Origin: Geotalea uraniireducens Rf4 | GTDB taxonomy: Bacteria > Desulfobacterota > Desulfuromonadia > Geobacterales > Geobacteraceae | DNA: 32,000 bases | Reading direction: 5' to 3' | Assembly (NCBI RefSeq): GCF_000016745.1 | Contig: NC_009483.1 | Span: 2,640,001 to 2,672,000, forward strand | Part shown: piece by piece, positions 60 to 20,020 of the stretch | Layout of the letters: every line of letters begins with the position of its first letter | How positions within the stretch are numbered: the first letter of the stretch is position 1 | The notes under the pieces: model-generated | Seen by the model: the letters and a program-made list of their open reading frames with translations, nothing else | What the model was told of the DNA's origin: nothing | The model's database searches: none | Made by a program: the position numbers and the translations under genes

Positions 60-188
60 TGTCTCCTCCTCAAGTCCACGATCAACATCGCCTGAAACGA
101 TGCTGCGCTTGCTTCTTTAAACATACCACAACTGCGAAGAATGCGACAAGGCCGGTGATTTGGCCCACCGCCACGAGACCCTCCAACA

Positions 189-207
189 GCACATGCAGGG
201 CATGTGC
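189..207. repeat. Perfect 8-bp inverted repeat with a 3-nt spacer (GCACATGC-AGG-GCATGTGC) in a divergent intergenic region
   Basis: Read directly from the sequence. It lies between the divergently oriented partial gene (1-59, minus) and the histidine kinase (403, plus). It could be an operator or a hairpin; function unknown. Confidence 0.5.
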
Positions 208-402
208 GTCGGCATTGCGTACATTTACAAAGCTTAGCGCTGTATGGTCCGCAGTCAATGTGAGTCACCCTACAAAATATGAACTGCCCTCCGACTTGCC
301 CCCCCTCCTCTTCCTGTTATTATTACGAAATACTTAGCCCGATTGCAAATGGCAGCGAGAGCGATGAATTGCAGTATCGGTAACCGGACAAAGGAGAACC
401 CC

Positions 403-3078
403 ATGCAGTTTGAGTTGCGTCTTCGGGAAAGCGAGGAGCTGTTTCATATACAGGTGGAGGGGGTGAAGGACTACGCGGTTTTCATGCTCGATACTCAGGG
501 AAATGTCCTGAATTGGAATGCGGGCGCTGAGCGCTTGAAGGGTTATCGGGACGAGGAGATTATCGGTAAACATTTCTCCTGTTTCTATACCGAAGAGGAG
601 CGGGCTGCCGGCAAGCCCGGAGAAGAACTCAAAAAAGCCGCGGCCGAGGGGCGGGTTGCAGATGAGGGGTGGCGGATCCGCAAGGACGGGAGCCGGTTCT
701 GGGCCGATGTGATAATAACGGCGCTCCACGATGAAAACGGGAACCTGCGGGGGTTCTCAATAGTGACGCGCGACAACACCGAACGAAAAAAGACGGAAGA
801 TGCCCTGCGTTTCAGCGAAGAACGTTATCGGGCCTTGTTTCGCGACAACCCGACCATGATCGTTACCCTCGATACCAAGTGGAAGATGCTCTCGGTCAAT
901 CCATTTTGCGCAAGCCAATTGGGCTACACGACAAATGAACTGGAAGGTCAATCGGTACTGAATCTGTTCCATGAAGACGACCGCCCTGCCGTGACCGAGC
1001 AGCTACAGATGTGTTTGCGGAACCCAGATCAGGTGTATCACTGGCAGTTTCGCAAGATCCGCAAAGACGGGAGCCTGCTCTGGGTGGAGGAAACAGCGCA
1101 GGCGGTGTATGACCTGGGCGGCGCGCTCAACGTCCTGGTAGTCAGTCAGGACATCACCGAGCGCAAGCGGGCAGAAGAGGAACAGGAACAACTGCTGGTG
1201 CAACTCGACGCTGTCCTGAACAGCATCAACGAAGGAGTTATCATCTCCGACCTCGAGGGCAACGTGCTGACAATGAACCCGTCGGCACTGGCCATCCACG
1301 AATATGAAAATGTCGAGCAGGTCCGGCGGCAGCTGCACCTGTACCAGGAGACCTTCGAACTGTCCGACCTTGATGGACACCCGGTGCCGTTCGAACAATG
1401 GCCACAGGCCCGCGCGCTCCGCGGCGAACGGTTTGCCGACTACGAGGTGAGCGTCCGACGCAAGGATACGGATAAATCGTGGATCGGCAGCTATAGCGGC
1501 ACACCTGTGCAGACCAAGTCGGGTGACATCATCCTCTCCGTCGTCACGTTGCGCGACATCACCGAGCGCAAACGAGTGGAGGAGGCGCTACGGGAATCGG
1601 AGAACAAGTTCTCCAAGGTCTTCCAAACGACGCCGAGCATCCTCGTCATAACGTCCCTGGCAGACGGGAGGTACCTGGAGGTCAACGAGGCCTTCGAACG
1701 GGTGATGGGCTACCGCCGCGACGAGGTGATCGGCCGTACTTCGATGGAGCTCCACATCTGGCAGAACCCGGAAGATCGGGCCATTGTACTCCGGATGCTC
1801 GCTGAAGGAAAGAAAGTACATGACATGGAGATCGGCTTAAGGAACAAATCGGGAACCATTCTAGTCGGCCTCTATTCGACGGAGATCATCGAAATCGGCG
1901 CGGAACAATGTCTGTTGAACGTGTTGAACGACATCACCGCCCGCAAGAAGGCGGAAGAAGAGCTGCGCCACAGCGAGGAGCGCTATCGCCGTCTCTACAA
2001 CGATACCCCGGTCATGCTCCATTCCATCGATCATGACGGGCGGTTGGTCAGCGTCAGCAATTACTGGCTCGAAACTCTCGGCTATGAGAGAAGCGAGGTG
2101 CTCGGCCGGCTATCCACGGAATTTCTCACGGCGGCATCCCGTTACTACGCCACCGAGTTTGTTCTTCCCGAATATTACCGGACCGGCTCCTGTAAGGAAG
2201 TGCCGTACCAGATGGTGAAGAAGAACGGCGAGATCCTGGACGTCCTCCTTTCCGCCATAGCGGAACGGGACAGCGAGGGGAAGGTCGTCCGCTCGCTCGC
2301 CGTCATAGTTGATGTGACCGATCGCAAGCAGGCGGATGAGGAGATCGAACGGCTGAACACCGACCTGGCGGCACGGGCCGCCGAGCTGGAGGCCGCCAAC
2401 CGGGAACTGGAGGCGTTCAACTACACGGTTGCCCACGATCTGCGCAAGCCGTTGACCGTGGTAAACGGCTATTGCCAGGCAATCCAGGAGCTGTGTGGCG
2501 ACAAACTCGGCGAGCAGTGCAAGGGTTTCCTCCGGGAGGCTTACGACGGCACCTGGCGCATGAACCGACTTATCGATGCCCTGCTCAACTTCTCTCGCCT
2601 GGCCCACGTTGAGACGCGCCGGGAAACGGTTGATTTCTCCGCCATGGCGCATGAGGTTGCCGCGGAGCTGAAGCTGGCCGAGCCGAAGCGCCGGGTCACG
2701 TTTCTTATCGCCGACGGGGTTAGTGCCGACGGGGATGCCGCCCTCTTGCGGGTGGTCCTGGATAACCTCCTCGGCAACGCCTGGAAGTACTCCGGCATGC
2801 GGGAGGAGACGGTCATTGAGTTCAGCGCGACGGAGATCGACGGGATGCCGGTTTATTTCGTCCGGGACAACGGAGTCGGTTTTAACAAGGCGGACGCGGA
2901 CAAACTCTTTGTCCCATTCCAGCGCCTCCCCGGCGCCGAAGAATGCAAAGGTTTCGGTATCGGTCTGGCCACGGTGGAGAAGATCATCCGGCGCCATGGC
3001 GGGAAGGTCTGGGCCAAGGGGGAGCCGGGCAATGGGGCGACCTTCTATTTTACGTTGAGCGGTGACAAAACCATCTGA
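403..3078 (+). CDS. Cytoplasmic multi-PAS sensor histidine kinase (five PAS/PAC modules + HisKA + HATPase_c)
   Basis: ORF 343-3078. I prefer the ATG at 403 because AAGGAGA sits 5 nt upstream. Five PAS-PAC units each end in a D[IVN]T[EAD]RK linker (DNTERKK, DITERKR x2, DITARKK, DVTDRKQ). H-box FNYTVAHDLRKPL. N/G boxes LLGNAWKY, DNGVGF, GFGIGLATV. No hydrophobic TM segment. Confidence 0.9.
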   Translation: MQFELRLRESEELFHIQVEGVKDYAVFMLDTQGNVLNWNAGAERLKGYRDEEIIGKHFSCFYTEEERAAGKPGEELKKAAAEGRVADEGWRIRKDGSRFWADVIITALHDENGNLRGFSIVTRDNTERKKTEDALRFSEERYRALFRDNPTMIVTLDTKWKMLSVNPFCASQLGYTTNELEGQSVLNLFHEDDRPAVTEQLQMCLRNPDQVYHWQFRKIRKDGSLLWVEETAQAVYDLGGALNVLVVSQDITERKRAEEEQEQLLVQLDAVLNSINEGVIISDLEGNVLTMNPSALAIHEYENVEQVRRQLHLYQETFELSDLDGHPVPFEQWPQARALRGERFADYEVSVRRKDTDKSWIGSYSGTPVQTKSGDIILSVVTLRDITERKRVEEALRESENKFSKVFQTTPSILVITSLADGRYLEVNEAFERVMGYRRDEVIGRTSMELHIWQNPEDRAIVLRMLAEGKKVHDMEIGLRNKSGTILVGLYSTEIIEIGAEQCLLNVLNDITARKKAEEELRHSEERYRRLYNDTPVMLHSIDHDGRLVSVSNYWLETLGYERSEVLGRLSTEFLTAASRYYATEFVLPEYYRTGSCKEVPYQMVKKNGEILDVLLSAIAERDSEGKVVRSLAVIVDVTDRKQADEEIERLNTDLAARAAELEAANRELEAFNYTVAHDLRKPLTVVNGYCQAIQELCGDKLGEQCKGFLREAYDGTWRMNRLIDALLNFSRLAHVETRRETVDFSAMAHEVAAELKLAEPKRRVTFLIADGVSADGDAALLRVVLDNLLGNAWKYSGMREETVIEFSATEIDGMPVYFVRDNGVGFNKADADKLFVPFQRLPGAEECKGFGIGLATVEKIIRRHGGKVWAKGEPGNGATFYFTLSGDKTI

Positions 3079-3130
3079 CAAACATCATACGGTCGTTAGT
3101 GGGGCGGCGAGCAGCAAGAATAGGAAGAGA

Positions 3131-3202
3131 GGTGCCGATTTCCTCATCAAGGCCGCGGATGAAGCCCTTTACCGGGCAAAAGAAAACGGCCGCAACCGCG
3201 TC
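3131..3202 (+). pseudogene. Stranded C-terminal fragment of a GGDEF (diguanylate cyclase) domain
   Basis: Translates to GADFLIKAADEALYRAKENGRNRV, the characteristic last helix of GGDEF domains (ADxALYxAKxxGRNRV). No GG[DE]EF core or upstream domain is present. The frame differs from the kinase that ends at 3078. Confidence 0.6.
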
Positions 3203-3333
3203 CGCCCTTTAGCGTCCCCCTCTCCTCCCAGGGGGGATTCTGGGAACATGCATGATAAGTACAGTCCCTTCCCATGCAATACCGCACGCATCAGCTCCCG
3301 AAAGCGCTCATCGTCGCGACATCATCACCATTT

Positions 3334-6443: not shown

Positions 6444-7785
6444 GGCTCCTCGACGAATTGAGTGGGTAGCCTGGGCCGGGTTGATGTAAGATAGGCCACC
6501 ATCACTCAGCCTGGAGGTTAGTAATCGCTATGAATCCTGAAGATCTTTTTGGTGCTGCTCTTGGAATTGCCATCCCGTGGAAGGTTACCTCTGTTGACTT
6601 CAACAAGAAGTCAAGTCGTTTGGACATAACCATCGACTTCCAGCGGGGAGCCACCTTTCCCTGTCCGGTCTGCGGAACGTTGTCACCAGTCCATGACACC
6701 ACGGAGAAAGAGTGGCGGCATCTGAATTTCTTCCAGTACGAAGCCTACCTTCATGCGCGTGTTCCACGGGTAAAGTGCCCTAACAGCGACTGCGGCGTGA
6801 AGTTGGTCCAGGTACCCTGGGCTCGCGCAGGCTCAGGATTTACGCTGCTGTTTGAGGCCCTGGCCATGACCATGGCTCGTGATTTGCCGGTGAAGGTCAT
6901 GAGCAGGCTGTTTGCCGTTACCGATACCCGTCTATGGCGGTTGATTCAATCCTATGTCGAGAAGGCAAGGGCCGCAGAAGACTTCTCCGAGGTGAAGAGG
7001 GTCGGTGCGGATGAAACCTTTGCCGGGCGCAGTCATGACGAGAAATTCGTCACCTTCTTCTTCGACCTCGACATGCATAAGCTCTTGTTCGGCACGACGG
7101 GAAAGGACAACGAAACAGTCAAGAGCTTCGTCGCGGACCTTAAGTCACATGGCGGCGATCCTGATAGCATCACAGACGCTGCTATTGACATGTCCAAGGC
7201 ATTCATAAAGGGTGTCAAAGAGCAGTTGCCCCATGCCGTGGTCACCTTCGATAAATTCCACGTCATCAAGCTTATGAACGATAAGCTTAGTAAGATAAGG
7301 GCTCAAGAAGCCAGGTTATTTCCTGAAATCCTGAAAAAGAGCAGAAACCTGTTCCTCAAAAATCCAGAGAACCTGACACCGGAAGAGGAACAGCGCCTGG
7401 ATGCCATTATCACCAGTCAAAGCTTAAGGAGTACGGAAGCTTACATGCACAAGCTGAACCTTCAGAACGTCTATTTTGCTTCAAGCCGAACGGAGGCAGA
7501 AACCCTGTTGACCAAATGGCATCGGAAAGCCGCCGCAAGCTCAATCCAACTCATCAAGAACATGGCCGAATCTGTAAAAGAGCATTGGGATGGCATTCTG
7601 GCACATTTTGAAAGCGGCCTGACTAGCGGCTTCATTGAGGGCATCAACAGCCTAATTCAATCAGCCAAAACTCGGGCACGAGGCTATCGGAATCCTGACA
7701 ACTTGATCTGCATGGCTTATCTGGTTGCAGGCAAGCTCAACCTAAAGTCGCTATTCCCTCTACCCACTTGATTCGTTGCAGAGCC
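6444..7785 (+). mobile_element. Complete ISL3-family insertion sequence (1342 bp) with imperfect terminal IRs and an 8-bp target-site duplication
   Basis: IRL 6444-6466 is GGCTCCTCGACGAATTGAGTGGG. The reverse complement of IRR 7763-7785 is GGCTCTGCAACGAATCAAGTGGG, matching at 18/23 positions. Identical TAATTACT lies directly outside both ends (6436-6443 and 7786-7793). The transposase stop lies inside IRR. Confidence 0.9.
6530..7771 (+). CDS. ISL3-family transposase (N-terminal zinc-finger + DDE domain)
   Basis: 413 aa, uninterrupted. Zinc-finger CPVCG...CPNSDCG. Core GADETF...FDKFHVIKL...GFIEGINSLIQSAKTRARGYRN is typical of IS204/IS1001/IS1096/IS1165-type (ISL3) transposases. Confidence 0.9.
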   Translation: MNPEDLFGAALGIAIPWKVTSVDFNKKSSRLDITIDFQRGATFPCPVCGTLSPVHDTTEKEWRHLNFFQYEAYLHARVPRVKCPNSDCGVKLVQVPWARAGSGFTLLFEALAMTMARDLPVKVMSRLFAVTDTRLWRLIQSYVEKARAAEDFSEVKRVGADETFAGRSHDEKFVTFFFDLDMHKLLFGTTGKDNETVKSFVADLKSHGGDPDSITDAAIDMSKAFIKGVKEQLPHAVVTFDKFHVIKLMNDKLSKIRAQEARLFPEILKKSRNLFLKNPENLTPEEEQRLDAIITSQSLRSTEAYMHKLNLQNVYFASSRTEAETLLTKWHRKAAASSIQLIKNMAESVKEHWDGILAHFESGLTSGFIEGINSLIQSAKTRARGYRNPDNLICMAYLVAGKLNLKSLFPLPT

Positions 7786-9431: not shown

Positions 9432-9824
9432 TCAGCAGCCACAACCACAGTTGTGACAGACCCTACGATTATGATCTTCCGGCGGGACTGTTTCTGGTGC
9501 AAATGCTATTCGATTGACAGCCCTTTTAATATCTTCCATCAGATCAAGGTTCGGACTTTTATCAATGATGTGACCTACACACAGATTTGTAAAGCCATCT
9601 GAAGGCGATGAAATCCGCACAGCATTAAGAACGTCCGTATAACTATTTATATCAATAACCATCTGTTCGTTATCCGCACGTATGAGACTGATGCCGAATC
9701 TTGCAAGATCATCTGCCAGCTCAATTAAAAACAACTCGAATTTTGAGCTGAATTGATCCACGCGCCAATCAGGTCTCACGTGATTTTGACGGTAAAAGGT
9801 GATCACCATGTTTTTTCCAGCCAT
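9432..9824 (-). CDS. Hypothetical protein with a C-terminal Cys-rich tail (…RRVCHNCGCGC-stop)
   Basis: ORF opens at 9827 (TTG). ATG at 9824 with AAGAGG upstream. I recognise no family. The last 8 residues carry 4 Cys and 1 His. It is the last gene of the minus-strand array. Confidence 0.55.
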   Translation of the reverse strand: MAGKNMVITFYRQNHVRPDWRVDQFSSKFELFLIELADDLARFGISLIRADNEQMVIDINSYTDVLNAVRISSPSDGFTNLCVGHIIDKSPNLDLMEDIKRAVNRIAFAPETVPPEDHNRRVCHNCGCGC

Positions 9825-9874
9825 CAATAGAAACCTCTTAACATTTAAAGTATGTACTTCGTAGTATCAATTAT

Positions 9875-10258
9875 TTAACCGGCAGCCTTTCTTTGCATGG
9901 AGCTGAAAATCATATCCAGCACCGCCTTCTGCTTCGCTTCATATTTATTCAGTACTGCAAGACAAGTCCCCATGGGAAAGTGCTCGTGCAGATAATCGGC
10001 ATCACGTCCTGACAGTATTACTATTCTATTTTTATCGATCCCGGCTTCTGTTGCATATTTGAATATTTTAGTGCCGTCGAGCATCGGCATCTCCAGATCA
10101 ACCAACAATAGATCGATCTTTTTTTTCTTCATGGCACTCAAAGCCTTTAACGGATTTGTACACGTTTCAACATCCAGAAGCGGATAGAATTCCCTTATAT
10201 AACTGCTTAGAAAATTTAAGAAAGCTGCGTCATCATCAATTATCAATATTTTCCCCAT
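9875..10258 (-). CDS. Single-domain response regulator (CheY-like receiver)
   Basis: 127 aa. ILIIDDD acidic pocket, phospho-acceptor in LLLVDLEMPMLDG, conserved Ser (ILSG) and Lys (LNK). No output domain. ATG at 10258 is preceded by GAGG. Confidence 0.85.
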   Translation of the reverse strand: MGKILIIDDDAAFLNFLSSYIREFYPLLDVETCTNPLKALSAMKKKKIDLLLVDLEMPMLDGTKIFKYATEAGIDKNRIVILSGRDADYLHEHFPMGTCLAVLNKYEAKQKAVLDMIFSSMQRKAAG

Positions 10259-10304
10259 CACGACCTCAACCTGCTAAATATATTCCCGAAACTCTCAACG
10301 TCTA

Positions 10305-11267
10305 TTACTTCAACACCCTCGTTGCGACATTCAACACTTGTATAGGTACATGAAGGTCAAGCAACTTGGCAACCTTCAGGTTGACAATAAGATCAATTTT
10401 TTTTGGGGTGCTTATAGCCATATGTGCCGGTTTTTTGCCTGCGAGTATTTTTGCTGCATAATCACCTGCAATCTGACCCTGCTCCAAAGAGTTGATTTCC
10501 AAGGCAACGAGCGCTCCTTTATCTGAAGCATCCGGCACATGGGATATAACAGGTATTTTACTCTCGTTTGTCCTACGTATTATTTTTTCAAAACTGCGAC
10601 TTACCGGCGTGCTTTCCGATAAATATAGCCAATCCACACGAGATGAGAGCAAAGAACTCAATGCATTGTCAAGCATGGTCGTAGAAGATACGTTCATCTC
10701 TACAACAGCAAAACCCATTTGAGCTCCGATGCGCTTGAGTTCCTTCAACTGAACAACGGAACCAATTTCTCTGGAATTGTATAAAACACCGAGGGTTCTG
10801 ATCGGTTTGACTTCCTGAGCGGCTTTTATCAACGTGACCATGGGTACTTTCGAGCTGACCCCGGTAAAGTTCCCGCCCGGCACTGTCATACTTCTTGTTA
10901 TACCAGTTTCCACAGGCCCGTAGACATCGACAAATACTATGGGAATACTATCAGACTCGCGCATGGCTGCCAGCGTTACCGGAGCACCGTAAGTAATGAT
11001 AATATCAGCACCTATTGCATTAAATTTTCTAATTGTGTTGGCCCAGGAAATTGGGTCAGGGTTTGGAGTCTGAGTAATAATCTCGATATTGCTTTGATCA
11101 TAGCCTTTCTGAGCAAGTGTCCTGATAAAAGCCTTATGAGCTTCTCTGTAGCGAGGGAGGTCGCTTGTTAAAACAGCAGCAACGAGCTTTCTTGCAGCAT
11201 GGGTCGGTGCAGCAACTGTCATTACAAGCAAAATAAGTATTAAATAACAATAAAATTTCAACGGCAT
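10305..11267 (-). CDS. Periplasmic ABC-type substrate-binding protein, ABC_sub_bind / COG2984-like
   Basis: 320 aa. Signal peptide (…VAAPTHA-ARK). Periplasmic-binding-fold pattern KLVAAVLTSD…, GADIIITYGAPVTLAA, TLGVLYN…, VDWLYL… resembles the COG2984 family. No cognate permease in the window. Confidence 0.65.
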   Translation of the reverse strand: MPLKFYCYLILILLVMTVAAPTHAARKLVAAVLTSDLPRYREAHKAFIRTLAQKGYDQSNIEIITQTPNPDPISWANTIRKFNAIGADIIITYGAPVTLAAMRESDSIPIVFVDVYGPVETGITRSMTVPGGNFTGVSSKVPMVTLIKAAQEVKPIRTLGVLYNSREIGSVVQLKELKRIGAQMGFAVVEMNVSSTTMLDNALSSLLSSRVDWLYLSESTPVSRSFEKIIRRTNESKIPVISHVPDASDKGALVALEINSLEQGQIAGDYAAKILAGKKPAHMAISTPKKIDLIVNLKVAKLLDLHVPIQVLNVATRVLK

Positions 11268-11292
11268 GTCGCCAGCTCCGTAACAGGTAATA

Positions 11293-13431
11293 CTACCATT
11301 TTGTGCTCACATAAGCCGTTACAATATGTACAGTTCCGTCAAATAACGAAGAATATTTATCATTATAATCTTTCAGCTGATATTCAAGAGAACAGGTCAG
11401 GTTCTTGGTTAAATGATAATTCCCACGGGCCGAGAAGGAAGTCTCAACCGTCTTCAGGTGTGATATATCTTTAATCCCCGTGGTATTGTCATTGGGGGTA
11501 AACGATTTAATCTCCGGATTAAACTCTGAAAGCGAGAACACCTGTTGCAATGTCAGGGATATGTCCGATTTATCCGAATATTGATAAGCCGTATTTAACG
11601 AGTAGAACTGGGCCTTTGACGTGTAATTGGAAGCGGCTTCACTGCCAGCCCCTACTATTGTAAACAACACAGCTTGATCAGTGCTGCTATGTAAATATCC
11701 ATAATTGGCACTGACAGTGAGCTTTTCAACCGGGACAAACCAGAAGCCCGCAGTAACATTATCAGTTGCCTTATCCCGCGATAAAAGGTGAGAAAATAGT
11801 GCATATTTTAGAGGGTCTATCGAGACGATAGTTCTTCTCTCAATTTGGTCATTGCTCTCCCGGATGCTCCGATAGTTTGCCGTCACTCCCCATCGACCAG
11901 TCATGTTATAGTTGGTTAGCAGTTCGCCTTCGTGCTTATTTGCAAATGAGGTGCCATAGGAAGGATGGTCCGTTGTGGTGTAGTTGTAACGGGCGCTTAG
12001 TCTGAGCCCTTTCAGCGGTCGGATGAGCAATGCAAGAGTCCCCCGGTGGGTATCCTGGGTTTCATTTAAAAACCAGTTCAGTCTTTCATCGCTGTTAGAA
12101 GGCAAATCACGATGCAGGAACTCTCCCTTATATTCGCCCTTAATCGTAACAAGATTGTTCGGTCTGAGCGACAACGTGGCTACTATCACATCCTTCTCCG
12201 TGCTGATGGAAGGTCTGACAGCCAGCGTGTTCTGCACAAAAAAACTGTTGGTAATAAAGGCCGGGCTGTTATTATCCACTTCCTGCCGCCGGTACTTCAG
12301 TCCCAGGGAGAATTCTTTGAAAGGTGTATAGACAAAGTCACCAGCCACATTGTGTAGATTAACCGATGCCTGCTCTGCGCCTTTTGTATCGCTAAGCGTC
12401 GAGAGATTATCCCTTTTGCCGTACGTATAAGAAGCAGCTCCAACAATACCGCCGGCCAGTGATGTGTGCAACTTGACCGTCTGGGCAAGATATCGGCTGC
12501 CCGGATCTTCGTTGTGTTCCTGCAAACCGCCGGTTCTATCAAGAACACCCTGGACATTATTACGTGGGGCAAAATCATCCCGAAGCTGAGCGGCATTATT
12601 CACAAACTGCCGGATCTGGAAGTTATATATCAGATCAACTGGGCCGAGGTGCGTGTCGAAACCGAGATTCCCCTCATGGGTCTCACGGTTTACAGATCTT
12701 GACCTCGCAAAAAAGTTGTTCTCGGGGCCTTCAAAAGCAATATCGGCAAAGCGCAGTTGACTAGCTCCCTCTTTTACCATACGCCAGTAACCGAGATTCA
12801 TGTGCAAAGGAAAGTCATGAAGCTTATAGCGAAAGCTTGCCAGGTCCTGTTCTGCTCTAACCCCGTATTTGGTTAAGGAATCATCCTGATGTGGGATATA
12901 ATCCGCCAAGGCACCGCGAAGATCCGCCCGCCCCAGTTGAAATGGCGTATCAAACAGCTTTTCACCAGCCAGATTGTGAAACAACGATTCGGTACGCATG
13001 TGAACACGATATTCTCCCCCATAGTCGAAGAGCATATCGCCATGGTAATCCTTATCGTTTAATATGGCACCGTCAAGCGCGAATTTAAGATCTTGTCCAA
13101 GACTGTTAAAATACCCGCCACCAATAAGCCCCGAATGAAGGTAGTCATATTGCGCAGCACGTCCTCCATAATTGTCGACTGATAAAAATCTGTAACCGGT
13201 AAAACCACCCAGAATAGTATGGGTTTCAACCTTTTTAACCGCCGCACTTTCTTCTTCGAGCTGAATGCCCTCTCCTAATTCGCTGCTGTTTTCAGCATTA
13301 TCATCATTGTTTAATGGTTTTACACCTGGCGATATGTTCTGGTTTTCTGCAGCTAATGTTAATGTGGCTGTCAAATTCAACAGGAACATTGTCACAACAA
13401 TCAGGCACGTCATACGGATCAGATTAGTCAC
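11293..13431 (-). CDS. Outer-membrane beta-barrel protein, MtrB/PioB-like (decaheme-associated porin)
   Basis: About 712 aa. ORF opens at 13461 (TTG). I prefer GTG at 13431 (AAGGAGA 6 nt upstream), which gives signal peptide VTNLIRMTCLIVVTMFLLNLTATLTLA-AEN. C-terminal aromatic residue (…YVSTKW). Abundant alternating Y/G/N/T strand-like segments. Sits immediately downstream of an MtrA-family decaheme gene, as in mtrAB/pioAB/mtoAB. The family call rests mainly on size, barrel features and context. Confidence 0.65.
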   Translation of the reverse strand: MTNLIRMTCLIVVTMFLLNLTATLTLAAENQNISPGVKPLNNDDNAENSSELGEGIQLEEESAAVKKVETHTILGGFTGYRFLSVDNYGGRAAQYDYLHSGLIGGGYFNSLGQDLKFALDGAILNDKDYHGDMLFDYGGEYRVHMRTESLFHNLAGEKLFDTPFQLGRADLRGALADYIPHQDDSLTKYGVRAEQDLASFRYKLHDFPLHMNLGYWRMVKEGASQLRFADIAFEGPENNFFARSRSVNRETHEGNLGFDTHLGPVDLIYNFQIRQFVNNAAQLRDDFAPRNNVQGVLDRTGGLQEHNEDPGSRYLAQTVKLHTSLAGGIVGAASYTYGKRDNLSTLSDTKGAEQASVNLHNVAGDFVYTPFKEFSLGLKYRRQEVDNNSPAFITNSFFVQNTLAVRPSISTEKDVIVATLSLRPNNLVTIKGEYKGEFLHRDLPSNSDERLNWFLNETQDTHRGTLALLIRPLKGLRLSARYNYTTTDHPSYGTSFANKHEGELLTNYNMTGRWGVTANYRSIRESNDQIERRTIVSIDPLKYALFSHLLSRDKATDNVTAGFWFVPVEKLTVSANYGYLHSSTDQAVLFTIVGAGSEAASNYTSKAQFYSLNTAYQYSDKSDISLTLQQVFSLSEFNPEIKSFTPNDNTTGIKDISHLKTVETSFSARGNYHLTKNLTCSLEYQLKDYNDKYSSLFDGTVHIVTAYVSTKW

Positions 13432-13469
13432 CCGCAATCTCCTTATTATCAAAATCGACAATTGATATT

Positions 13470-14477
13470 TTACTGGCGTAGAGAACCGGGGCCAGTGACA
13501 GCCGGAGTTGGAATATCCGTACCGTGAATCTGGGAATGGCAGTCAGTGCAACGATTGGAAAAAAGCTGTTTATTACCGGCAGCAGTGTTCACAGTATGCC
13601 CGCCATGACATTGCAGGCAAAGGAAAGGCATAGCAGCATTAAGCAGATGGTTGTTAATCGACCCGTGAGCAGAATGGCAATTGGCACAGTTTTCAGTTAC
13701 GTCACCATGTTCGAAAACAAAAGGCCCCTGCTTTTCCATATGGCATCGGGTGCAGGTTTCTTTCGGGGTATTTCCTTTCAGAAGCTTGTCCTGCGTCGAA
13801 CCATGCACATCATGACAGTCAACGCAGGCCATCTTCTTTTCCATCAGGGGATGATGGGAAAACAGGTTATTCTCAACCTTTACTTGAGGATGGCAGCCAT
13901 AACAAAGCTCTGCCATTTCCTCACGGCTTACCTTCTGCTGAGGGCCTTGATGGAGTTTGTGACAGTCGAAACAACTGACATCGTTCAACGCATGTGTGCC
14001 GGCATTCCAGTGGGCGAGAGTGGGGATGGAAGCTGCAGAATGACACTTGAGACAGATGAGGGATTGCGCCTGCGGGGGGAGGTTCATGATATCCAGGAAT
14101 TTTTTCGTATCGCATTTCTTTTTGAGCTTATCGTTGAGTTCGGGGTCATCTTCAATTTCGGCAATGGCAAGACTTCCCGGGCCATGACATGACTCGCAAT
14201 TGACCAGAGGCAATCCGGTTCCCGGCTTTAACTGCTCGCCATGAATACTGTGTTTAAAGTCATCGGTGATCTTATCATGCTTATGACACCTGGCAACGCA
14301 GTTGTCCGTCCCCACATAATCGGCATCAAGCCTGCCGACAATCATCTTTTCATATTCATGGACAGGCAAGAGTGGTTTGCTCTGCTTCAGTTCTGCACAT
14401 GCAGCAAACAGAAAAGGGGCTGCGAAAAACATTGGCAAGATAATATAACGGAACAAAGGCCTGTCTTTCAATTCCAT
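13470..14477 (-). CDS. Decaheme c-type cytochrome, MtrA/DmsE family
   Basis: 335 aa. Ten CXXCH motifs: CVARCH, CESCH, CLKCH, CFDCH, CYGCH, CVDCH, CTRCH, CANCH, CLQCH, CTDCH. Blocks match my recollection of Shewanella MtrA: CTRCHMEKQGPFVFEHGDVTENCANCHSAHGS versus [32 protein letters not shown], and a C-terminal CxxCHSQ[IV]HG. N-terminal signal sequence. Confidence 0.9.
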   Translation of the reverse strand: MELKDRPLFRYIILPMFFAAPFLFAACAELKQSKPLLPVHEYEKMIVGRLDADYVGTDNCVARCHKHDKITDDFKHSIHGEQLKPGTGLPLVNCESCHGPGSLAIAEIEDDPELNDKLKKKCDTKKFLDIMNLPPQAQSLICLKCHSAASIPTLAHWNAGTHALNDVSCFDCHKLHQGPQQKVSREEMAELCYGCHPQVKVENNLFSHHPLMEKKMACVDCHDVHGSTQDKLLKGNTPKETCTRCHMEKQGPFVFEHGDVTENCANCHSAHGSINNHLLNAAMPFLCLQCHGGHTVNTAAGNKQLFSNRCTDCHSQIHGTDIPTPAVTGPGSLRQ

Positions 14478-15356
14478 CTAGTCCTCTCGTATCCCCTTGG
14501 TTGTTGTATAAATAAAACCTTTCACAATCGGGTTTTGGCTTTTCTTGATTTCTGCAGGTGTGCCGACTTCAACAATTCTTCCACCATGCATCATGGCAAT
14601 TCGGTCTGAAATATAAAGGGCAAAGTTCAAATCATGGGTAACGATAACCGTAGTATTTTTGGTTGTCTCTTTGAGTTTTAGAATTGTGTTGGCGAGTTCG
14701 TCTGTCGTCACCGGATCAAGCTCAGCGGTAGGTTCGTCGTACAGTATCAGGTCAGGATTCATGGCAAGTGAGCGCGCAATTGCCACCCTTTTTTTCATTC
14801 CTCCCGAAAGTTCGGAGGTACGCAGATTTTCCTTACCGGCCAGACCCACCTGATCCAGTTTTTCCTTAATGATCTCCTTTATCTTGTATTCCTTACATAT
14901 CCGCTTTTCCCTTAACCATAATCCGACGTTTTCCCCAACCGTCAGCGAGTTAAACAGTGCCGATGATTGAAAAACCATACTATAGCGATAATCCCGCTCC
15001 GACTGCTTTTTGTTATTCGCGAAGATGGGAAAGCCGTCAATATAAATCTCACCGCTGTCAGGATGCTCCAGCTTCACTATATGCTTTAACAGCACACTTT
15101 TACCTGTGCCGGATGGTCCTATAATTGAAAATGTTTCCCCGGCAAAGATCTCCAAATCAATGTCTTGAAGTACATGCAGTTCGCCAAAATACTTGTTAAG
15201 CTTTTCCACCTTGATATCAACGCCACGGGTATCATTAAGATTTACCGTACACTCGCAGCCGTCATCATGTAAAATTGAACCAGTCAGACCGTGCTTCAAC
15301 TTTTCAAACACACTCACGTTCCTTTTCCCTTGGTATTGAAACGAGTCAATACCCAA
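14478..15356 (-). CDS. ABC transporter ATP-binding protein, MlaF/Ttg2A-like
   Basis: Walker A GPSGTGKS, signature LSGGMKKR, Walker B LILYDEPTAELD, H-loop VTHD. Overall MlaF-like (…VEKLNKYFG…, …NPIVKGFI…). The start is uncertain: TTG at 15356 or GTG at 15317. The stop codon (14478-14480) abuts the cytochrome ATG (14475-14477). Confidence 0.8.
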   Translation of the reverse strand: MGIDSFQYQGKRNVSVFEKLKHGLTGSILHDDGCECTVNLNDTRGVDIKVEKLNKYFGELHVLQDIDLEIFAGETFSIIGPSGTGKSVLLKHIVKLEHPDSGEIYIDGFPIFANNKKQSERDYRYSMVFQSSALFNSLTVGENVGLWLREKRICKEYKIKEIIKEKLDQVGLAGKENLRTSELSGGMKKRVAIARSLAMNPDLILYDEPTAELDPVTTDELANTILKLKETTKNTTVIVTHDLNFALYISDRIAMMHGGRIVEVGTPAEIKKSQNPIVKGFIYTTTKGIRED

Positions 15357-15427
15357 AAATGTAGGTCATACTACCAAAGCAGACAATATTAATGCAAGGA
15401 GAGAATAGCCTAATAATATTTTATTAA

Positions 15428-15865
15428 CTAAAAAAGATATTTGTAGGGATTGTTAAAATAGTTCTTATGACGGTATATAAATTGAGTCAAAAGAAGAATG
15501 GCCAAAGCAGCTGCTATATTATTGATCCACAGGGCTTCCTGTTGCACCCGGGAGCCTACGAGTTTCTCCAGTTCCCGGGGGGTAATGAAACTCAGATTAA
15601 CGATAGTATTGATCACCTGGAATAAGTTGTAACCCAGCAACAAATACCAGGTGAGCAATTGACGTTTCATGATCCCTAAAAAGAGATAAAGGCAAATGAG
15701 ACTGTCGACAATAACCAGCGCCTTGGCCGATGTTCCCACATAAATATTGCCGAGAAATGGGAACGGATTGCCAAAAGTAGACGCTGAAACCATAAAGAAA
15801 AAAAGATACAGACCGGTTAAGAGAGTTAATCCCAAGGGGCGGCGTAACTCGTCACTATCTTCCAT
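15428..15865 (-). CDS. Hypothetical integral membrane protein (about 4 TM segments)
   Basis: 145 aa. ATG with AAGGAT 7 nt upstream. Four hydrophobic stretches. Too small to be an MlaE-type permease, and I recognise no permease motifs. Confidence 0.55.
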   Translation of the reverse strand: MEDSDELRRPLGLTLLTGLYLFFFMVSASTFGNPFPFLGNIYVGTSAKALVIVDSLICLYLFLGIMKRQLLTWYLLLGYNLFQVINTIVNLSFITPRELEKLVGSRVQQEALWINNIAAALAILLLTQFIYRHKNYFNNPYKYLF

Positions 15866-15905
15866 ATTTTGATCCTTATCCAGACGTGTCGTATTTACGG
15901 CATGA

Positions 15906-16007
15906 CTACTTCGATTTTTTTCGCATGTCGCTTATGGCAACGCAAACAAAGATGATTATCATAACCACGGCGATAAACAGCCAATCGGCTGAGCTGAAAC
16001 CGAACAT
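15906..16007 (-). CDS. Small single-TM peptide (33 aa), not in the ORF track
   Basis: The minus strand reads ATG TTC GGT … = MFGFSSADWLFIAVVMIIIFVCVAISDMRKKSK-stop. AAAGGAGA sits 3 nt upstream of the ATG. One hydrophobic helix plus a basic tail. Confidence 0.45.
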   Translation of the reverse strand: MFGFSSADWLFIAVVMIIIFVCVAISDMRKKSK

Positions 16008-16032: not shown

Positions 16033-17088
16033 CCTGATTGGCCCTCATCTTCAGCCAATGGAGAAAAGGACGTATTCTGTCACATGTCTAGAGTAGTGTC
16101 ATAGTGAAATAAGCCAAGGAGGCCACTATGACGAAGAATCACTTTCAGTTTCAACAAGGGCTCAGCTTGAACGACTTTTTGTACAGCTATGGCACTGAAG
16201 AGCAATGTTCAGCGATCTTGGAAAAGAGCCGCTGGCCCCAGGGTTTCAAATGTCCTTCCTGTCAGAGTACCAGCCACTGTGTAGTCTGGCATGCACAAGT
16301 CAAAACATTTCAGTGCAATCGGTGTCATACCCAGACAACGCTGACCGCAGGCTCGATTTTTCACTCAACCAAGTTGCCGCTGGTCCAATGGTTTCAGGCC
16401 ATGTACTTTCTCACGCAAACCAAGAACAATGTCTCGGCTCTGGAGTTGAAGCGCCTGATCGGTGTTTGCTACAAAACCGCATGGCGTGTGAAGCACAAGC
16501 TCATGCAAGTTATGGTTGAACAGGAGCAGGACACGATTTTGCTCGGCCGGGTCGAAGTAGATGATGCCTACCTGGGTGGAGAAAACCCAGGAGGCAAGGC
16601 CGGGCGAGGTTCGGAAAACAAGACGCCGTTTATTGCTGCTGTTGAAACCAATGAAAAGGGCCATCCACTTCGTGCTGTGTTTCAAAGGTGCCAGCCTTTA
16701 ACCGCGAAGTAGTCACCGAATGGGCAAAACGGTCACTGTCAGCTTCAGCGACAGTGGTAAGCGACGGACTGGCCTGCTTTCGTGCAGTTACCGAGGCTGG
16801 ATGTTTCCATACCCCAACCATTGTCGGGAAGAAACGCAAGAGTACCGACATTGTGTGTTTCAATTGGGTCAATACCATTCTCGGCAACCTCAAGACGTCG
16901 ATCTCTGGAACGTACCATGCATTTGATTTCGAAAAGTATGGAACTCGTTACCTGGCTGAGGTTCAATACCGATTCAACCGCCGGAAGGATCTGCGCGGCA
17001 TGCTCTCGCGACTGATCTCGGCGGCGGCTACTACTGGCAAGCATCCCGAGCACAATCTCAGACTGGCTGAAGATTGGCGCTAATCAGG
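16033..17088 (+). mobile_element. IS1595-family (ISXO2-like) insertion sequence, 1056 bp, with IRs and an 8-bp target-site duplication
   Basis: IRL 16033-16059 is CCTGATTGGCCCTCATCTTCAGCCAAT. The reverse complement of IRR 17062-17088 is CCTGATTAGCGCCAATCTTCAGCCAGT, matching at 22/27 positions. Identical AAAGTTGA directly flanks both ends (16025-16032 and 17089-17096). Confidence 0.85.
16128..17083 (+). pseudogene. IS1595-family transposase, split by a single-nucleotide frameshift
   Basis: The N-terminal part (16128-16712) has the zinc-ribbon CPSCQ…CNRCH. The C-terminal part (from about 16682 in the -1 frame) has the ISXO2-like DDE region …VVSDGLACFRAV…. The two parts join as …LRAVF|SKVPAFNREVV if one T is restored to the T-run at 16680-16682. 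AAGGAGG SD lies before 16128. Confidence 0.8.
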
Positions 17089-18016
17089 AAAGTTGATCAA
17101 GTGCACAGCGGACCTCCTGATAATCAGGATTGAGCTTGAGCGCTTCATGCAGATATTCCTCGGCATATCGCGGCATATCCATCTTCACACAACATTGTCC
17201 AAGATAATAAAATATCTCAGGCAGCGGAAATTGTTCGCAAAAAAACGTATCGTCAATAATGTCCTGTAGTATGGCTGCCGCCTCTTCGTATTCACCCCGT
17301 TCATACACGAAAAATGCCGCCGCAACCGCTTCCAGATAATCAACCACTGGTATCCGCGGCAGTTCCCCACCTGCAATCTGCTGCAAACGAACCTCTAGTT
17401 TTTGCGCTTCCTTTGATTCCAGAGCACAAAGTATACCACGCCAACAAACAGAAGCGTCCTGGTACTTGCCCAGCAGATAACAAACCTCTCCGAGCTTGTT
17501 CCTGACAATTACATGTTCAGGAGATAACTGCAACGCCTTACGGAGGAAATCCTCCGCGCGGTAAAGCGTAACCGTAGATAAATGCAAAGCGGAAAGCCGC
17601 AACCCTTTATCAAGGAGAGTTATGCCGATCTCTAAGGGAAACTGCGGGTTTTCCGGCTCGATCAAAGCAAATATTTTCAAATAATTAATTCTTCTATCCA
17701 GGTAAGTAATTTCCACATCTTTATGCTCAAGCATAATGATATGGCTGGCAAGTTCTGAAAGATAGTGGGGATAGGCCTCTTTCAGCAGCATCGCATAGCG
17801 CGCGCTCAAAACAGAGTCGGGATTTGCACGCAACAGTTGATAAATGCCGCGGCCAACGGCATCGTATGAGGGATAAGGACCGTCAAGGGCCGCGTAGTCT
17901 TCTTCCAAAAGAGGGATAGGAATTTCCCCGTATGGAATCCTGATCCTTCCGTCAAGGCCTGTCAGAATGGCGTCTTCCGGAGGTTCAAAATAGCGGATTC
18001 CCGGAATCGGTGTCAA
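17084..18016 (-). CDS. TPR-repeat protein
   Basis: 310 aa. Repeated A-x-x-x-Y/F…A…P helical-pair patterns (…YRAEDFLRKALQLSPEH…, …YAEEYLHEALKLNPDY…). Only a TTG start is available at 18016, with a weak SD. The last codon and the stop (TCC TGA) are supplied by the IS1595 end. Confidence 0.7.
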   Translation of the reverse strand: MTPIPGIRYFEPPEDAILTGLDGRIRIPYGEIPIPLLEEDYAALDGPYPSYDAVGRGIYQLLRANPDSVLSARYAMLLKEAYPHYLSELASHIIMLEHKDVEITYLDRRINYLKIFALIEPENPQFPLEIGITLLDKGLRLSALHLSTVTLYRAEDFLRKALQLSPEHVIVRNKLGEVCYLLGKYQDASVCWRGILCALESKEAQKLEVRLQQIAGGELPRIPVVDYLEAVAAAFFVYERGEYEEAAAILQDIIDDTFFCEQFPLPEIFYYLGQCCVKMDMPRYAEEYLHEALKLNPDYQEVRCALDQLS

Positions 18017-18036
18017 TTCTTTAAGATTTATATGGT

Positions 18037-18885
18037 TTATGGCTGCGTCTCCTCTGATTCCCTGTCGGGAAAGGTATTTATAGCGGCTGATTCGCCGACC
18101 ATTTTGTAGATTTTCACATTATCCCACGGCTCATCCATGATGCCATCATGGATGGCCCAGCTGCGGCCACGTACTGATTTCTCCATACCAGGCATACGAA
18201 ACGGAGAGGAGCCGTCCATCCTCTTGCAAAGTACCCCCCCCGGCCTAAACCCTTCATTTATCACAAGCATCAGCCTTTTGCCGGTTATATAATCAAAACC
18301 GTATTTTTCGTAACGGATAGCGTTGTCATAAGTAAGCGGCTCGGCAACAATCATCTCCATACCCAAACCATCCACGAATCGCTCGAAGAGAGCAAAGAAC
18401 TCCCTGAACATCTTCAAACCCCGATGGGTTTGATTCGGAAAAAGGCCGGCCCCCATGGCTGAGATTTCCTCCGGGATATTACGGCCAAGACTGGTAAAAC
18501 AATTGTCCATGCCGGAACTATCCTTATCCACATTGAAACGTGGCGCACGAGGATCATTAATAATACAGAATGCCAGTTCCATCTGGCGATAATGGGTATC
18601 TGCAAGCTCAAGAAAAAAAACCTTATCGTCGTCAAACTCACGCATCCTTGCCTCGATACGCAGGATACCCAGACCGCGCGGGGCGATAACGGTGATTTTT
18701 CGTTCACCGTCTGCACCGCAAAAGTTTACTGCAGAGACAGCCAAAATATCAAAGAGCCGCGGCGGAATAATTCTTTTATAAATCATCTCCTTCTCGACTG
18801 CATCAAGAAGGTTAATGTCCCTCAGGGAAAAAAGCGGCTTCCCCTGAAGGTCGGTCAGCTGTTCATTTCCCGGAAGTCTGGCCAT
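18037..18885 (-). CDS. Hypothetical protein (282 aa), translationally overlapped with the upstream deacetylase gene
   Basis: Long uninterrupted ORF with normal amino-acid composition. ATG at 18885 (the ORF track opens at TTG 18894), overlapping the HDAC-like gene's 3' end (18863) by 23 nt. No family recognised with confidence. Region …HRGLKMFREFFALFERFV…YEKYGFDY… is faintly GNAT-like. Confidence 0.6.
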   Translation of the reverse strand: MARLPGNEQLTDLQGKPLFSLRDINLLDAVEKEMIYKRIIPPRLFDILAVSAVNFCGADGERKITVIAPRGLGILRIEARMREFDDDKVFFLELADTHYRQMELAFCIINDPRAPRFNVDKDSSGMDNCFTSLGRNIPEEISAMGAGLFPNQTHRGLKMFREFFALFERFVDGLGMEMIVAEPLTYDNAIRYEKYGFDYITGKRLMLVINEGFRPGGVLCKRMDGSSPFRMPGMEKSVRGRSWAIHDGIMDEPWDNVKIYKMVGESAAINTFPDRESEETQP

Positions 18886-20020
18886 ATTCACCAATAATAA
18901 CAGGGAAAATCGTTTTTTTAATTGCAGCTACACTCTTCTCGACCGCATCCAGAGCCCTGTTTCGGTCGTCTTCATCAGCCCAGTGCATGGCATCTAGCAG
19001 CATCTTGTGCGGGAAACCCAACGGCCTGATAATCTTTATAAACGATGACGGTAAAGCTGGGGGCAAATCAATGCCGTTCATTATAGCCCAGACAATAGTC
19101 CACGCCCGTGCAACGTTCATAATGTCGTAACCACCGCCACCAACCGCTATCCAAGGGATTTGCAACGCCTTCAATTTCCTGATTATATATGAATAGGCAT
19201 GGGTAGTAATTTCAAGCCTGGTGAGAGGATCGGTGCGAAAGGTATCCGCACCGACCTGCGTAACCAGAACATCCGGGTCGAACGCAGCAATCAAGGGAAA
19301 AGCGACCTCATCAAAAGCCTTCATATATAGGGCGTCATCGGTGTGTTCCAAAAGCGGGATGTTGACAGAATACCCCACCCCCTTGCCGGCGCCTGTTTCA
19401 TTTTCAAATCCGGTCCCCGGGAAAAAATATACTCCGCTTTCGTGAAGAGAAATGGTCAGAACTTGATCGCTGTCGTAAAAAGCATCTTGAACACCATCAC
19501 CGTGATGGGCATCAAGATCAAGATAAACAACCCTTTTCCCTTTAGCGAGCAGTACATTTATGGCAATAACGGCATCGTTCAGATAGGAAAAGCCCGACGC
19601 CTTATTCCTGTGGGCATGGTGCCAACCTCCAGCCAGGTTAAAAGCAAAGTCATACCCTTCTTCGGCAACCAACCGTGCGGCTTCTACCGTTCCGGCTGTT
19701 CCCAGACAGGCCCAGTCATAAACACCTTTAAAAACAGGATTCTCCGTATCACCCAGGCCATAACGAAAGTCCGCTCTCGGTTCTTCAGCAGTACTGAATT
19801 CCTTGAGCTGCGCCAAATAATCAGGGGAATGAAAGGTGAGAAGCTGTTCTTCAGCAATGGGACGGCTTTGACATAACCGCACACCTGGAATCCGGGTCAG
19901 CCCGTAAGCTTGAATGAGCTCATAGGCCAGTCTGTAACGCTGCACTTTGAACGGATGTTCGGCACCGTAACTGTAACGGCTGAAATCCGGCGAATAGATC
20001 AGGGCTGATTTACCTGACAA
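18863..20020 (-). CDS. Histone deacetylase-family protein (AcuC/acetoin-utilisation-type class I deacetylase)
   Basis: 385 aa. Catalytic motifs GGWHHAHRNKASGFSYLNDAV, LDLDAHHGDG, GGGGY. TTG start at 20020 with GGAGAA 5 nt upstream. Confidence 0.85.
   Translation of the reverse strand: MSGKSALIYSPDFSRYSYGAEHPFKVQRYRLAYELIQAYGLTRIPGVRLCQSRPIAEEQLLTFHSPDYLAQLKEFSTAEEPRADFRYGLGDTENPVFKGVYDWACLGTAGTVEAARLVAEEGYDFAFNLAGGWHHAHRNKASGFSYLNDAVIAINVLLAKGKRVVYLDLDAHHGDGVQDAFYDSDQVLTISLHESGVYFFPGTGFENETGAGKGVGYSVNIPLLEHTDDALYMKAFDEVAFPLIAAFDPDVLVTQVGADTFRTDPLTRLEITTHAYSYIIRKLKALQIPWIAVGGGGYDIMNVARAWTIVWAIMNGIDLPPALPSSFIKIIRPLGFPHKMLLDAMHWADEDDRNRALDAVEKSVAAIKKTIFPVIIGEYGQTSGK

Follow-up and report, generated by a model that had tools for sequence, protein, structure and literature searches.

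A conserved OmcI-type porin-cytochrome locus of Geotalea uraniireducens Rf4 as a probable MtrAB-like outer-membrane conduit

The stretch of DNA analyzed here, referred to as the window, comprises 32,000 nt of Geotalea uraniireducens Rf4 (GCF_000016745.1, NC_009483.1 positions 2,640,001-2,672,000), and the gene array at positions 9432-16007 raises the question of what a decaheme cytochrome gene and an outer-membrane barrel gene encode together when they stand among genes for an ABC ATPase, a substrate-binding protein, a receiver and a cysteine-tailed protein. All eight open reading frames (ORFs) of the array are closely packed on the minus strand, in the same-strand arrangement with short gaps that an earlier reading of the sequence alone (hereafter the sequence-only reading) had described. 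That reading had proposed a conduit in the style of PioAB/MtoAB. The part of the proposal that stands is the combination of an MtrA-family decaheme with an MtrB-like barrel in the absence of MtrC and CymA, and the part that does not is a role in Fe(II) oxidation or electron uptake. The locus probably encodes an OmcI-type, MtrAB-like two-component porin-cytochrome conduit, and it is a conserved member of an operon type already noted in print. Related loci were obtained by a scan with one genome per species, which gave 36 loci, and by look-up of three further loci, including G. metallireducens and a groundwater relative with 98% identity (L037). The ORFs in these loci were called mechanically from the first start codon, and the overlaps reported below depend on such starts.

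The cytochrome gene (13470-14477, minus strand) encodes a decaheme c-type cytochrome of 335 aa, which is assigned to the DmsE/MtrA/OmcI family and predicted to be a lipoprotein. It scored 273.7 bits against the DmsE-family decaheme model TIGR03508, which the sequence-only reading had named as a check, and passed the curated cut-off of 192.2 bits. The alignment with solved MtrA (6R2Q_A) gave E 3.5e-41 and covered residues 55-324 (~270 residues). At the level of sequence, these matches show that the protein belongs to the DmsE/MtrA family. The score against the GSU2203 model NF041028 was 237.9 bits, below its cut-off of 325 bits. Ten heme-binding motifs had been counted before and all ten had been described as CXXCH; the count is right, but the set consists of nine CXXCH and one CX3CH (CVARCH, residue 60), which, when aligned with MtrA, falls at heme 1 and contains one inserted residue. 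This pattern was invariant in the 120 best homologues, in which both the heme motifs and the lipobox were surveyed, and in all related loci holding the cytochrome (36 loci). The CX3CH is regarded as the tenth heme-binding motif, a predicted attachment site. In 120 of the 120 homologues, a lipobox-like [LIVMF]-x-[AGS]-C motif was observed at the end of the signal peptide, before the first heme motif, and we take the cytochrome family to be predicted lipoproteins. This is consistent with the description of OmcI of G. sulfurreducens as an outer-membrane lipoprotein cytochrome that clusters with MtrA and DmsE (PMC11434368).

The barrel gene (11293-13431, minus strand) follows the cytochrome gene, with 38 nt between the cytochrome stop codon and the barrel ATG at 13431, and this spacing reproduces the one given earlier; with an alternative TTG start at 13461, the product would have 722 aa instead of 712 aa. 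From the PF11854 matches of its orthologues and from its fold, the product (~712 aa) is read as an outer-membrane beta-barrel, a putative divergent sheath protein of the MtrB/PioB superfamily. Structure prediction was performed for single chains only with AlphaFold (AF2), and the barrel model had a pLDDT of 71.7, ~24 confident strands and a disordered acidic N-terminus. The best fold match of this model in the PDB was MtrB (6R2Q_B, E 3.2e-14), which has 26 strands in 6R2Q, and the next was the TonB-dependent barrel ZnuD (E 1.5e-7), so that MtrB matched better by seven orders of magnitude. The predicted model suggests an MtrB-like fold. In addition, PF11854 (MtrB_PioB) was matched weakly by 10 of 22 barrel orthologues (best E 1.1e-11), the relatives scored weakly against TIGR03509 (20-42 bits, cut-off 240 bits), and some orthologues carry the NCBI name MtrB/PioB family. 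Taken with the modeled fold, the orthologue matches place the barrel in the MtrB/PioB superfamily, distantly.

Several results weigh against this placement and against a plain conduit. The window barrel itself had no match in Pfam, with none to PF11854 at E<=1, and it failed the MtrB/PioB-family model TIGR03509 that had been suggested as a check, with no match at E<=10. Against the GSU2204 model NF041027, it scored 80.7 bits, below the cut-off of 350 bits. A profile built from the 22 orthologues found no MtrB by sequence in the PDB, with none at E<=1; a sequence link between this profile and solved MtrB was therefore rejected, and only the fold search connects them. The first ~138 residues of the barrel were poorly modeled (pLDDT <50), and the TM-score between the barrel model and MtrB was moderate (0.44-0.48). 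Furthermore, the conserved genes encoding the ATPase, binding protein, receiver and cysteine-tailed protein are not explained by a plain conduit. A match of the barrel to an unrelated outer-membrane protein family had also been named as a refuting result, and it matched none.

The window barrel contains only two cysteines, with no CXXC and no CXXCH, and its gene has no in-frame UGA. An N-terminal CXXC is a feature of Shewanella-type MtrB; its absence from this porin, already noticed in the sequence-only reading, extends to the whole protein and to every Geobacteraceae orthologue. An exhaustive search with the barrel profile (E<=1e-3) returned 438 cluster representatives, and intermediates that might bridge to canonical MtrB/PioB were sought among them; the ten representatives sampled were all below the cut-offs of TIGR03509 and NF041027, and no bridge was accepted. 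By these scores, the barrel family is a distinct clade beside the GSU2204 family. Each of the four Desulfuromonadales orthologues of the barrel (L033 9785-12022, L034 5198-7231, L035 9872-11914, and L036 9854-11914) has one CXXCH (CNQCH, CTACH or CSACH) near residue 199-234, which suggests that a heme may be carried on the barrel itself in these loci, as in the GSU2204 family.

The MtrC or CymA genes are absent in cis. No further multiheme ORF was present in the window, and the earlier observation that it holds no MtrC/OmcA-like or CymA/NapC-like gene is upheld. A partner of the MtrC/CymA type just outside the array was also considered and rejected, since a scan of the relatives (threshold >=3 CXXCH, ~10 kb around) found no other such ORF in 36 of 36 loci. 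There was no high-potential iron-sulfur protein (HiPIP; PioC) among the Pfam matches of the array, and no MtoD or CymA-type partner was present at the locus.

To place the window copy among its relatives, gene order, flanks and base composition were compared. The array is conserved gene for gene in ~33 Geobacteraceae loci, G. metallireducens included, and its order recurs in every Geobacteraceae locus retrieved, except at contig ends and for a few genes missed singly; chance adjacency, which had been raised as a possible refutation, is thus not the case. The upstream part of this order is deacetylase, 285-aa protein, TPR protein, 33-aa peptide, four-transmembrane (4-TM) protein, ATPase, cytochrome and barrel, and the barrel is followed by the binding protein, receiver, cysteine-tailed protein, an opposite-strand YfcE-type phosphodiesterase and then SppA. 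The genera sharing this order are Geotalea, Geomonas, Geobacter, Geomobilimonas, Geoanaerobacter and Geomesophilobacter. The gltX, amtB and MshEN-receiver genes upstream are common to the window and its relatives, and the flanks from gltX to sppA are unchanged around the array. The cytochrome and the ATPase are 73-83% and 76-86% identical to their counterparts in the relatives, and the barrel only 40-64%; the cytochrome and barrel genes were neighbors in 38 of 38 related loci, and the G+C of the array followed that of the host genome (0.45 to 0.64). The conserved order and flanks, together with the G+C following the host, indicate vertical inheritance of a core locus and no acquired island. 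On this comparative evidence, the array is a vertically inherited core locus of the Geobacteraceae and the window copy is an ordinary one, and not an oddity in a background of Pcc/Ext conduits as had been supposed.

Four Desulfuromonadales loci (L033-L036; Trichloromonas and Desulfuromonas) keep the deacetylase, 285-aa and TPR genes, which are followed by genes encoding a 492-aa secreted protein, MlaE, the ATPase and MlaD, a gap of ~250-290 nt between mlaD and the cytochrome gene, and then the cytochrome, barrel and binding protein. These loci lack the peptide, 4-TM protein, receiver and cysteine-tailed protein. Only these four loci have MlaE and MlaD; both are missing from the locus in the window and in all Geobacteraceae. 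In this part of the loci (L036 4424-8584; also in L033-L035), the 492-aa secreted protein is rich in WP[LF] repeats and has no Pfam match, and the MlaD/MCE protein has 362 aa with repeated G-x-G-S/T-L-G-R/K-L motifs.

The barrel identity drops to 28-31% across the two orders, and the core of ATPase, cytochrome, barrel and binding protein is still kept. This agrees with the co-occurrence of ATPase, mtrA, mtrB and binding-protein genes that had been put forward as a synteny check, in which the receiver is found in the Geobacteraceae loci and is missing from the Desulfuromonadales loci. As far as synteny indicates, these four genes are the long-lived core, and the Geobacteraceae ATPase appears to have lost its MlaE/MlaD neighbors.

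The remaining genes of the array differ in how far their products can be assigned. The gene at 14478-15356 (minus strand) encodes an MlaF/MceG-type ABC ATPase (PF00005), and its stop codon abuts the cytochrome start with 0 nt between them. The best solved relatives of the ATPase were MlaF of MlaFEDB (7D06_B and 6Z5U_K, E 6e-48), with the mycobacterial MCE-transporter ATPase of 8FED also among them, and it is 69% identical to the L036 ATPase, which is flanked by MlaE and MlaD. The gene downstream of the barrel (10305-11267, minus strand) encodes a periplasmic substrate-binding protein of PF04392 (COG2984; E 1.4e-46), with 6HNI, 3LKV and 3LFT as solved relatives and a score of 155 bits against the TrpX model, below the cut-off of 390 bits. 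In many related loci this gene overlaps the barrel gene. It is followed by a single-domain CheY-like receiver of 128 aa (9875-10261, minus strand; PF00072, E 2.6e-13), which, by reading of the sequence, has the usual acidic pocket and phospho-acceptor Asp; the receiver is kept at 65-84% identity in the Geobacteraceae loci. The three assignments made earlier, as MlaF-like, COG2984-like and CheY-like proteins, were all reproduced by these matches.

The last gene of the array (9432-9827, minus strand) encodes a predicted cytoplasmic protein of 130 aa with a C-terminal CHNCGCGC tail. The protein has no Pfam domain, and its 457 homologues, almost all of them unnamed or Geobacteraceae sequences, form an orphan family. 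The C-terminal NR[RK]VCHNCGCGC and an AFAPET motif are both invariant, and VCHNCGCGC was found in 31 of 31 aligned orthologues, in agreement with the tail singled out in the sequence-only reading. The AF2 model had a pLDDT of 86.3 with a disordered tail, and the fold search against the PDB gave nothing significant (best E 0.027). Several of the weak matches are to what we take to be thioredoxin-like domains, and the body of the protein may be thioredoxin-like, although these matches are not significant. In containing CXXCGC, the tail resembles HypB, where this pattern is the site of high-affinity Ni(II) binding (PMC12284835).

At the upstream end of the array, the gene at 15906-16007 (minus strand) encodes a conserved 33-aa single-TM peptide and has an AAGGAG ribosome-binding site. 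The peptide was found in 29 related loci with 61-100% identity, and the differences from its orthologues by codon position were 167/106/420, an excess at the third position. This substitution bias indicates that the peptide gene is real, as judged from its codons. The adjacent gene (15428-15865, minus strand) encodes a 145-aa 4-TM protein conserved in 27 related loci, with no Pfam or NCBIfam match and no family assigned. The 4-TM protein was also considered as a remnant of MlaE, and this was rejected, with a BLASTP E of 0.007 and a profile-profile (hhalign) probability of 0.1%.

No intrinsic terminator pattern was found between the genes of the array. The c-di-GMP and cGAMP switches occur near Geobacter cytochrome genes; no riboswitch or other known RNA was found upstream in the window or in six related loci.

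Under the favored reading as a conduit, a lipid-anchored decaheme of the DmsE/MtrA family would be threaded into a large barrel of ~24-26 strands, and its heme chain would link periplasmic carriers, whose genes lie elsewhere, with an extracellular partner by passing electrons across the outer membrane. In print, at least 58% of Desulfuromonadia species are reported to have homologues of DmsE, MtoA, MtrA and OmcI (PMC11492766, 2024), and, in the same paper, Geobacterales operons are described that combine such homologues with an MtrB/PioB-like porin, an ABC ATPase and a substrate-binding protein, with a proposed role in metal uptake. The accessory set had been thought unreported, and this does not hold for the ATPase and the binding protein. 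In the open-access text searched, as far as it was accessible, no description was found of the peptide, 4-TM protein, receiver and cysteine-tailed protein as fixed members, nor of the MlaE/MlaD ancestry, the CX3CH motif or the CXXCH of the Desulfuromonadales barrels. According to secondary accounts, deletion of omcI impairs growth on Fe(III) citrate and Fe(III) oxide (Aklujkar 2013, via PMC9248073 and PMC8235581). Because of the lineage and this reported phenotype, outward flow, with reduction of metal or another extracellular acceptor, is judged more likely than inward flow.

In the alternative that survives best, which we regard as possible but clearly less likely, the conduit is part of a larger envelope-spanning device that would reductively take up or sense a metal or redox-active ligand outside the cell. 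The persistence of the ATPase-cytochrome-barrel-binding protein core over two orders, in spite of a barrel identity of 28-31%, speaks for such a device, as do the reading frames that abut or overlap, which together with the conserved order also bear out the earlier claim that the accessory genes are linked to the mtrAB-like pair. The receiver and the cysteine-tailed protein are conserved as much as the cytochrome, the tail carries the HypB-like Ni(II) site pattern (PMC12284835), and the metal-uptake role proposed in PMC11492766 points in the same direction. However, the flanking genes are equally syntenic in the Geobacteraceae, so that synteny within this family is weak evidence of coupling, and in the Desulfuromonadales loci the mlaD-cytochrome gap of ~250-290 nt separates the genes and the receiver, cysteine-tailed protein, 4-TM protein and peptide are all missing. 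In addition, no permease was recognizable in the window by Pfam, NCBIfam or comparison with the MlaE profile, and PF04392 binding proteins are not known as partners of MlaE-type systems. In such a device, the 4-TM protein and the 33-aa peptide would be the membrane partners of the orphaned MlaF-type ATPase. The coupling of the heme wire to the ATPase with the 4-TM protein and peptide, to the binding protein, to the receiver and to the protein with the CXXCGC tail as a redox-gated uptake or sensing system is a tentative proposal of the same low likelihood.

An inward conduit of the PioAB/MtoAB style, oxidizing Fe(II) or drawing electrons from minerals or cathodes, is unlikely. Two observations would fit it: the A and B components stand alone, an MtrC-like gene being found neither in the window nor in any of the 36 scanned loci, and the barrel has no N-terminal CXXC. 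Nevertheless, the sequence-only reading derived this role solely from the lack of MtrC, a lack shared by MtrAB-only reducers (PMC7005843), and no HiPIP (PioC), MtoD or CymA-type partner accompanies the pair. The members of the lineage reduce metals and encode many extracellular cytochromes at other loci, and the one phenotype reported for the OmcI group, in the accounts cited above, is impaired reduction of Fe(III) citrate and oxide. The weakest alternative, in which the barrel would be a substrate channel or lipid-handling partner of an ancestral Mla/MCE system and a periplasmic cytochrome would deliver electrons with nothing threaded, draws on MlaE-MlaF-MlaD directly upstream in the Desulfuromonadales relatives and on the failure of the barrel in the curated MtrB/PioB models, and is very improbable given that MtrB is by far the best fold match, that an MtrA-family decaheme gene accompanies the barrel gene in every case, and that the Geobacteraceae appear to have lost MlaE and MlaD from the locus and kept the cytochrome-barrel pair.

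Upstream of the array, genes encoding a histone-deacetylase-family enzyme (PF00850), a 285-aa protein without known domain and a TPR protein (TPR matches) lie at 17084-20020 (minus strand). These three genes are syntenic in the Geobacteraceae and Desulfuromonadales, with overlapping or near-abutting frames, and in L037 the TPR stop codon is 9 nt from the start codon of the peptide gene; in the relatives they are possibly in one transcription unit with the array. In the window, an IS1595-family insertion of 1056 bp (16033-17088), which is not part of the system, lies between the TPR gene and the 33-aa peptide gene. This insertion sequence (IS) element lies within the final codons of the TPR gene, 25 nt from the peptide gene on its upstream side. 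Its inverted ends are imperfect, it shows an 8-bp target duplication (AAAGTTGA), and its transposase is split between two overlapping frames (16128-16712 and 16688-17083). L037, the relative with 98% identity, lacks the element. If the array is read through from the upstream genes, this copy may be polar on the array or alter its expression.

An ISL3-family transposase gene (6530-7771) was found in the segment 6447-7919, between sppA and a DsbH-like thioredoxin-domain gene, and this segment stands in place of 331 bp of intergenic DNA in L037. The array was also considered as a genomic island between the two IS elements, and this was rejected, since the array occupies the same site in L037, where both IS elements are missing, and the G+C of the array tracks each host genome. 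L037 also lacks a segment of 3.2 kb (103-3322) in which a five-PAS histidine kinase of 911 aa is encoded (343-3078); the G+C of the surrounding 1-6 kb stretch is 0.58-0.61, compared with 0.41-0.50 elsewhere in the window.

Extracellular electron transfer in Geobacter is usually framed in terms of Pcc/Ext conduits and cytochrome filaments. Few cytochrome loci of the family are as conserved as the MtrAB-like pair, yet it has hardly been studied, and its occurrence in tractable model strains such as G. metallireducens leaves its roles open to direct genetics. Should the accessory genes prove to be functionally tied to the conduit, Mtr-type conduits would be known to serve more than respiration, and an envelope-spanning machine of this sort, if real, would be an Mtr-type system of a kind not described mechanistically. 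The window copy adds no new type of system and is disturbed only by the IS insertion just upstream.

Compared with Shewanella MtrAB (MtrCAB, 6R2Q), the locus shares a decaheme of the DmsE/MtrA family, a barrel whose model best fits MtrB, and adjacent genes with the cytochrome first. Unlike the Shewanella system, it has no MtrC/OmcA or CymA gene. Shewanella MtrA is soluble, whereas the window cytochrome is predicted to carry a lipid anchor and has CX3CH at its first heme, and the window barrel, unlike Shewanella MtrB, lies below every curated MtrB/PioB threshold and has no N-terminal CXXC. The window operon also adds genes for the ATPase, binding protein, receiver and cysteine-tailed protein.

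The other known systems each resemble the locus in part. Like PioAB/MtoAB, it has an A and B pair without a surface decaheme, but it has no PioC, MtoD or CymA-type partner, its barrel is outside TIGR03509, and the host lineage and the only reported phenotype indicate reduction. Like MlaFEDB/MCE, it has an MlaF-type ATPase, whose Desulfuromonadales orthologue lies between MlaE and MlaD, but MlaE and MlaD are absent from the window and the Geobacteraceae loci and the 4-TM protein is unrelated to MlaE. By score, the cytochrome and the barrel come closest, among curated families, to OmcK/GSU2203 and the GSU2204 barrel, a CXXCH-containing (seleno)protein; both window proteins are under the cut-offs, and the window barrel lacks CXXCH and an in-frame UGA, while the Desulfuromonadales barrels at the syntenic locus have one CXXCH like GSU2204. 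The operons of the OmcI (GSU1228) group agree with the locus in gene content, by the description in the accessible part of PMC11492766, where only the ATPase and binding protein are mentioned as accessory genes, and the likeness to GSU1228 is drawn from that description. The lipoprotein nature predicted for the cytochrome likewise agrees with the description of OmcI, and an identical locus is present in G. metallireducens.

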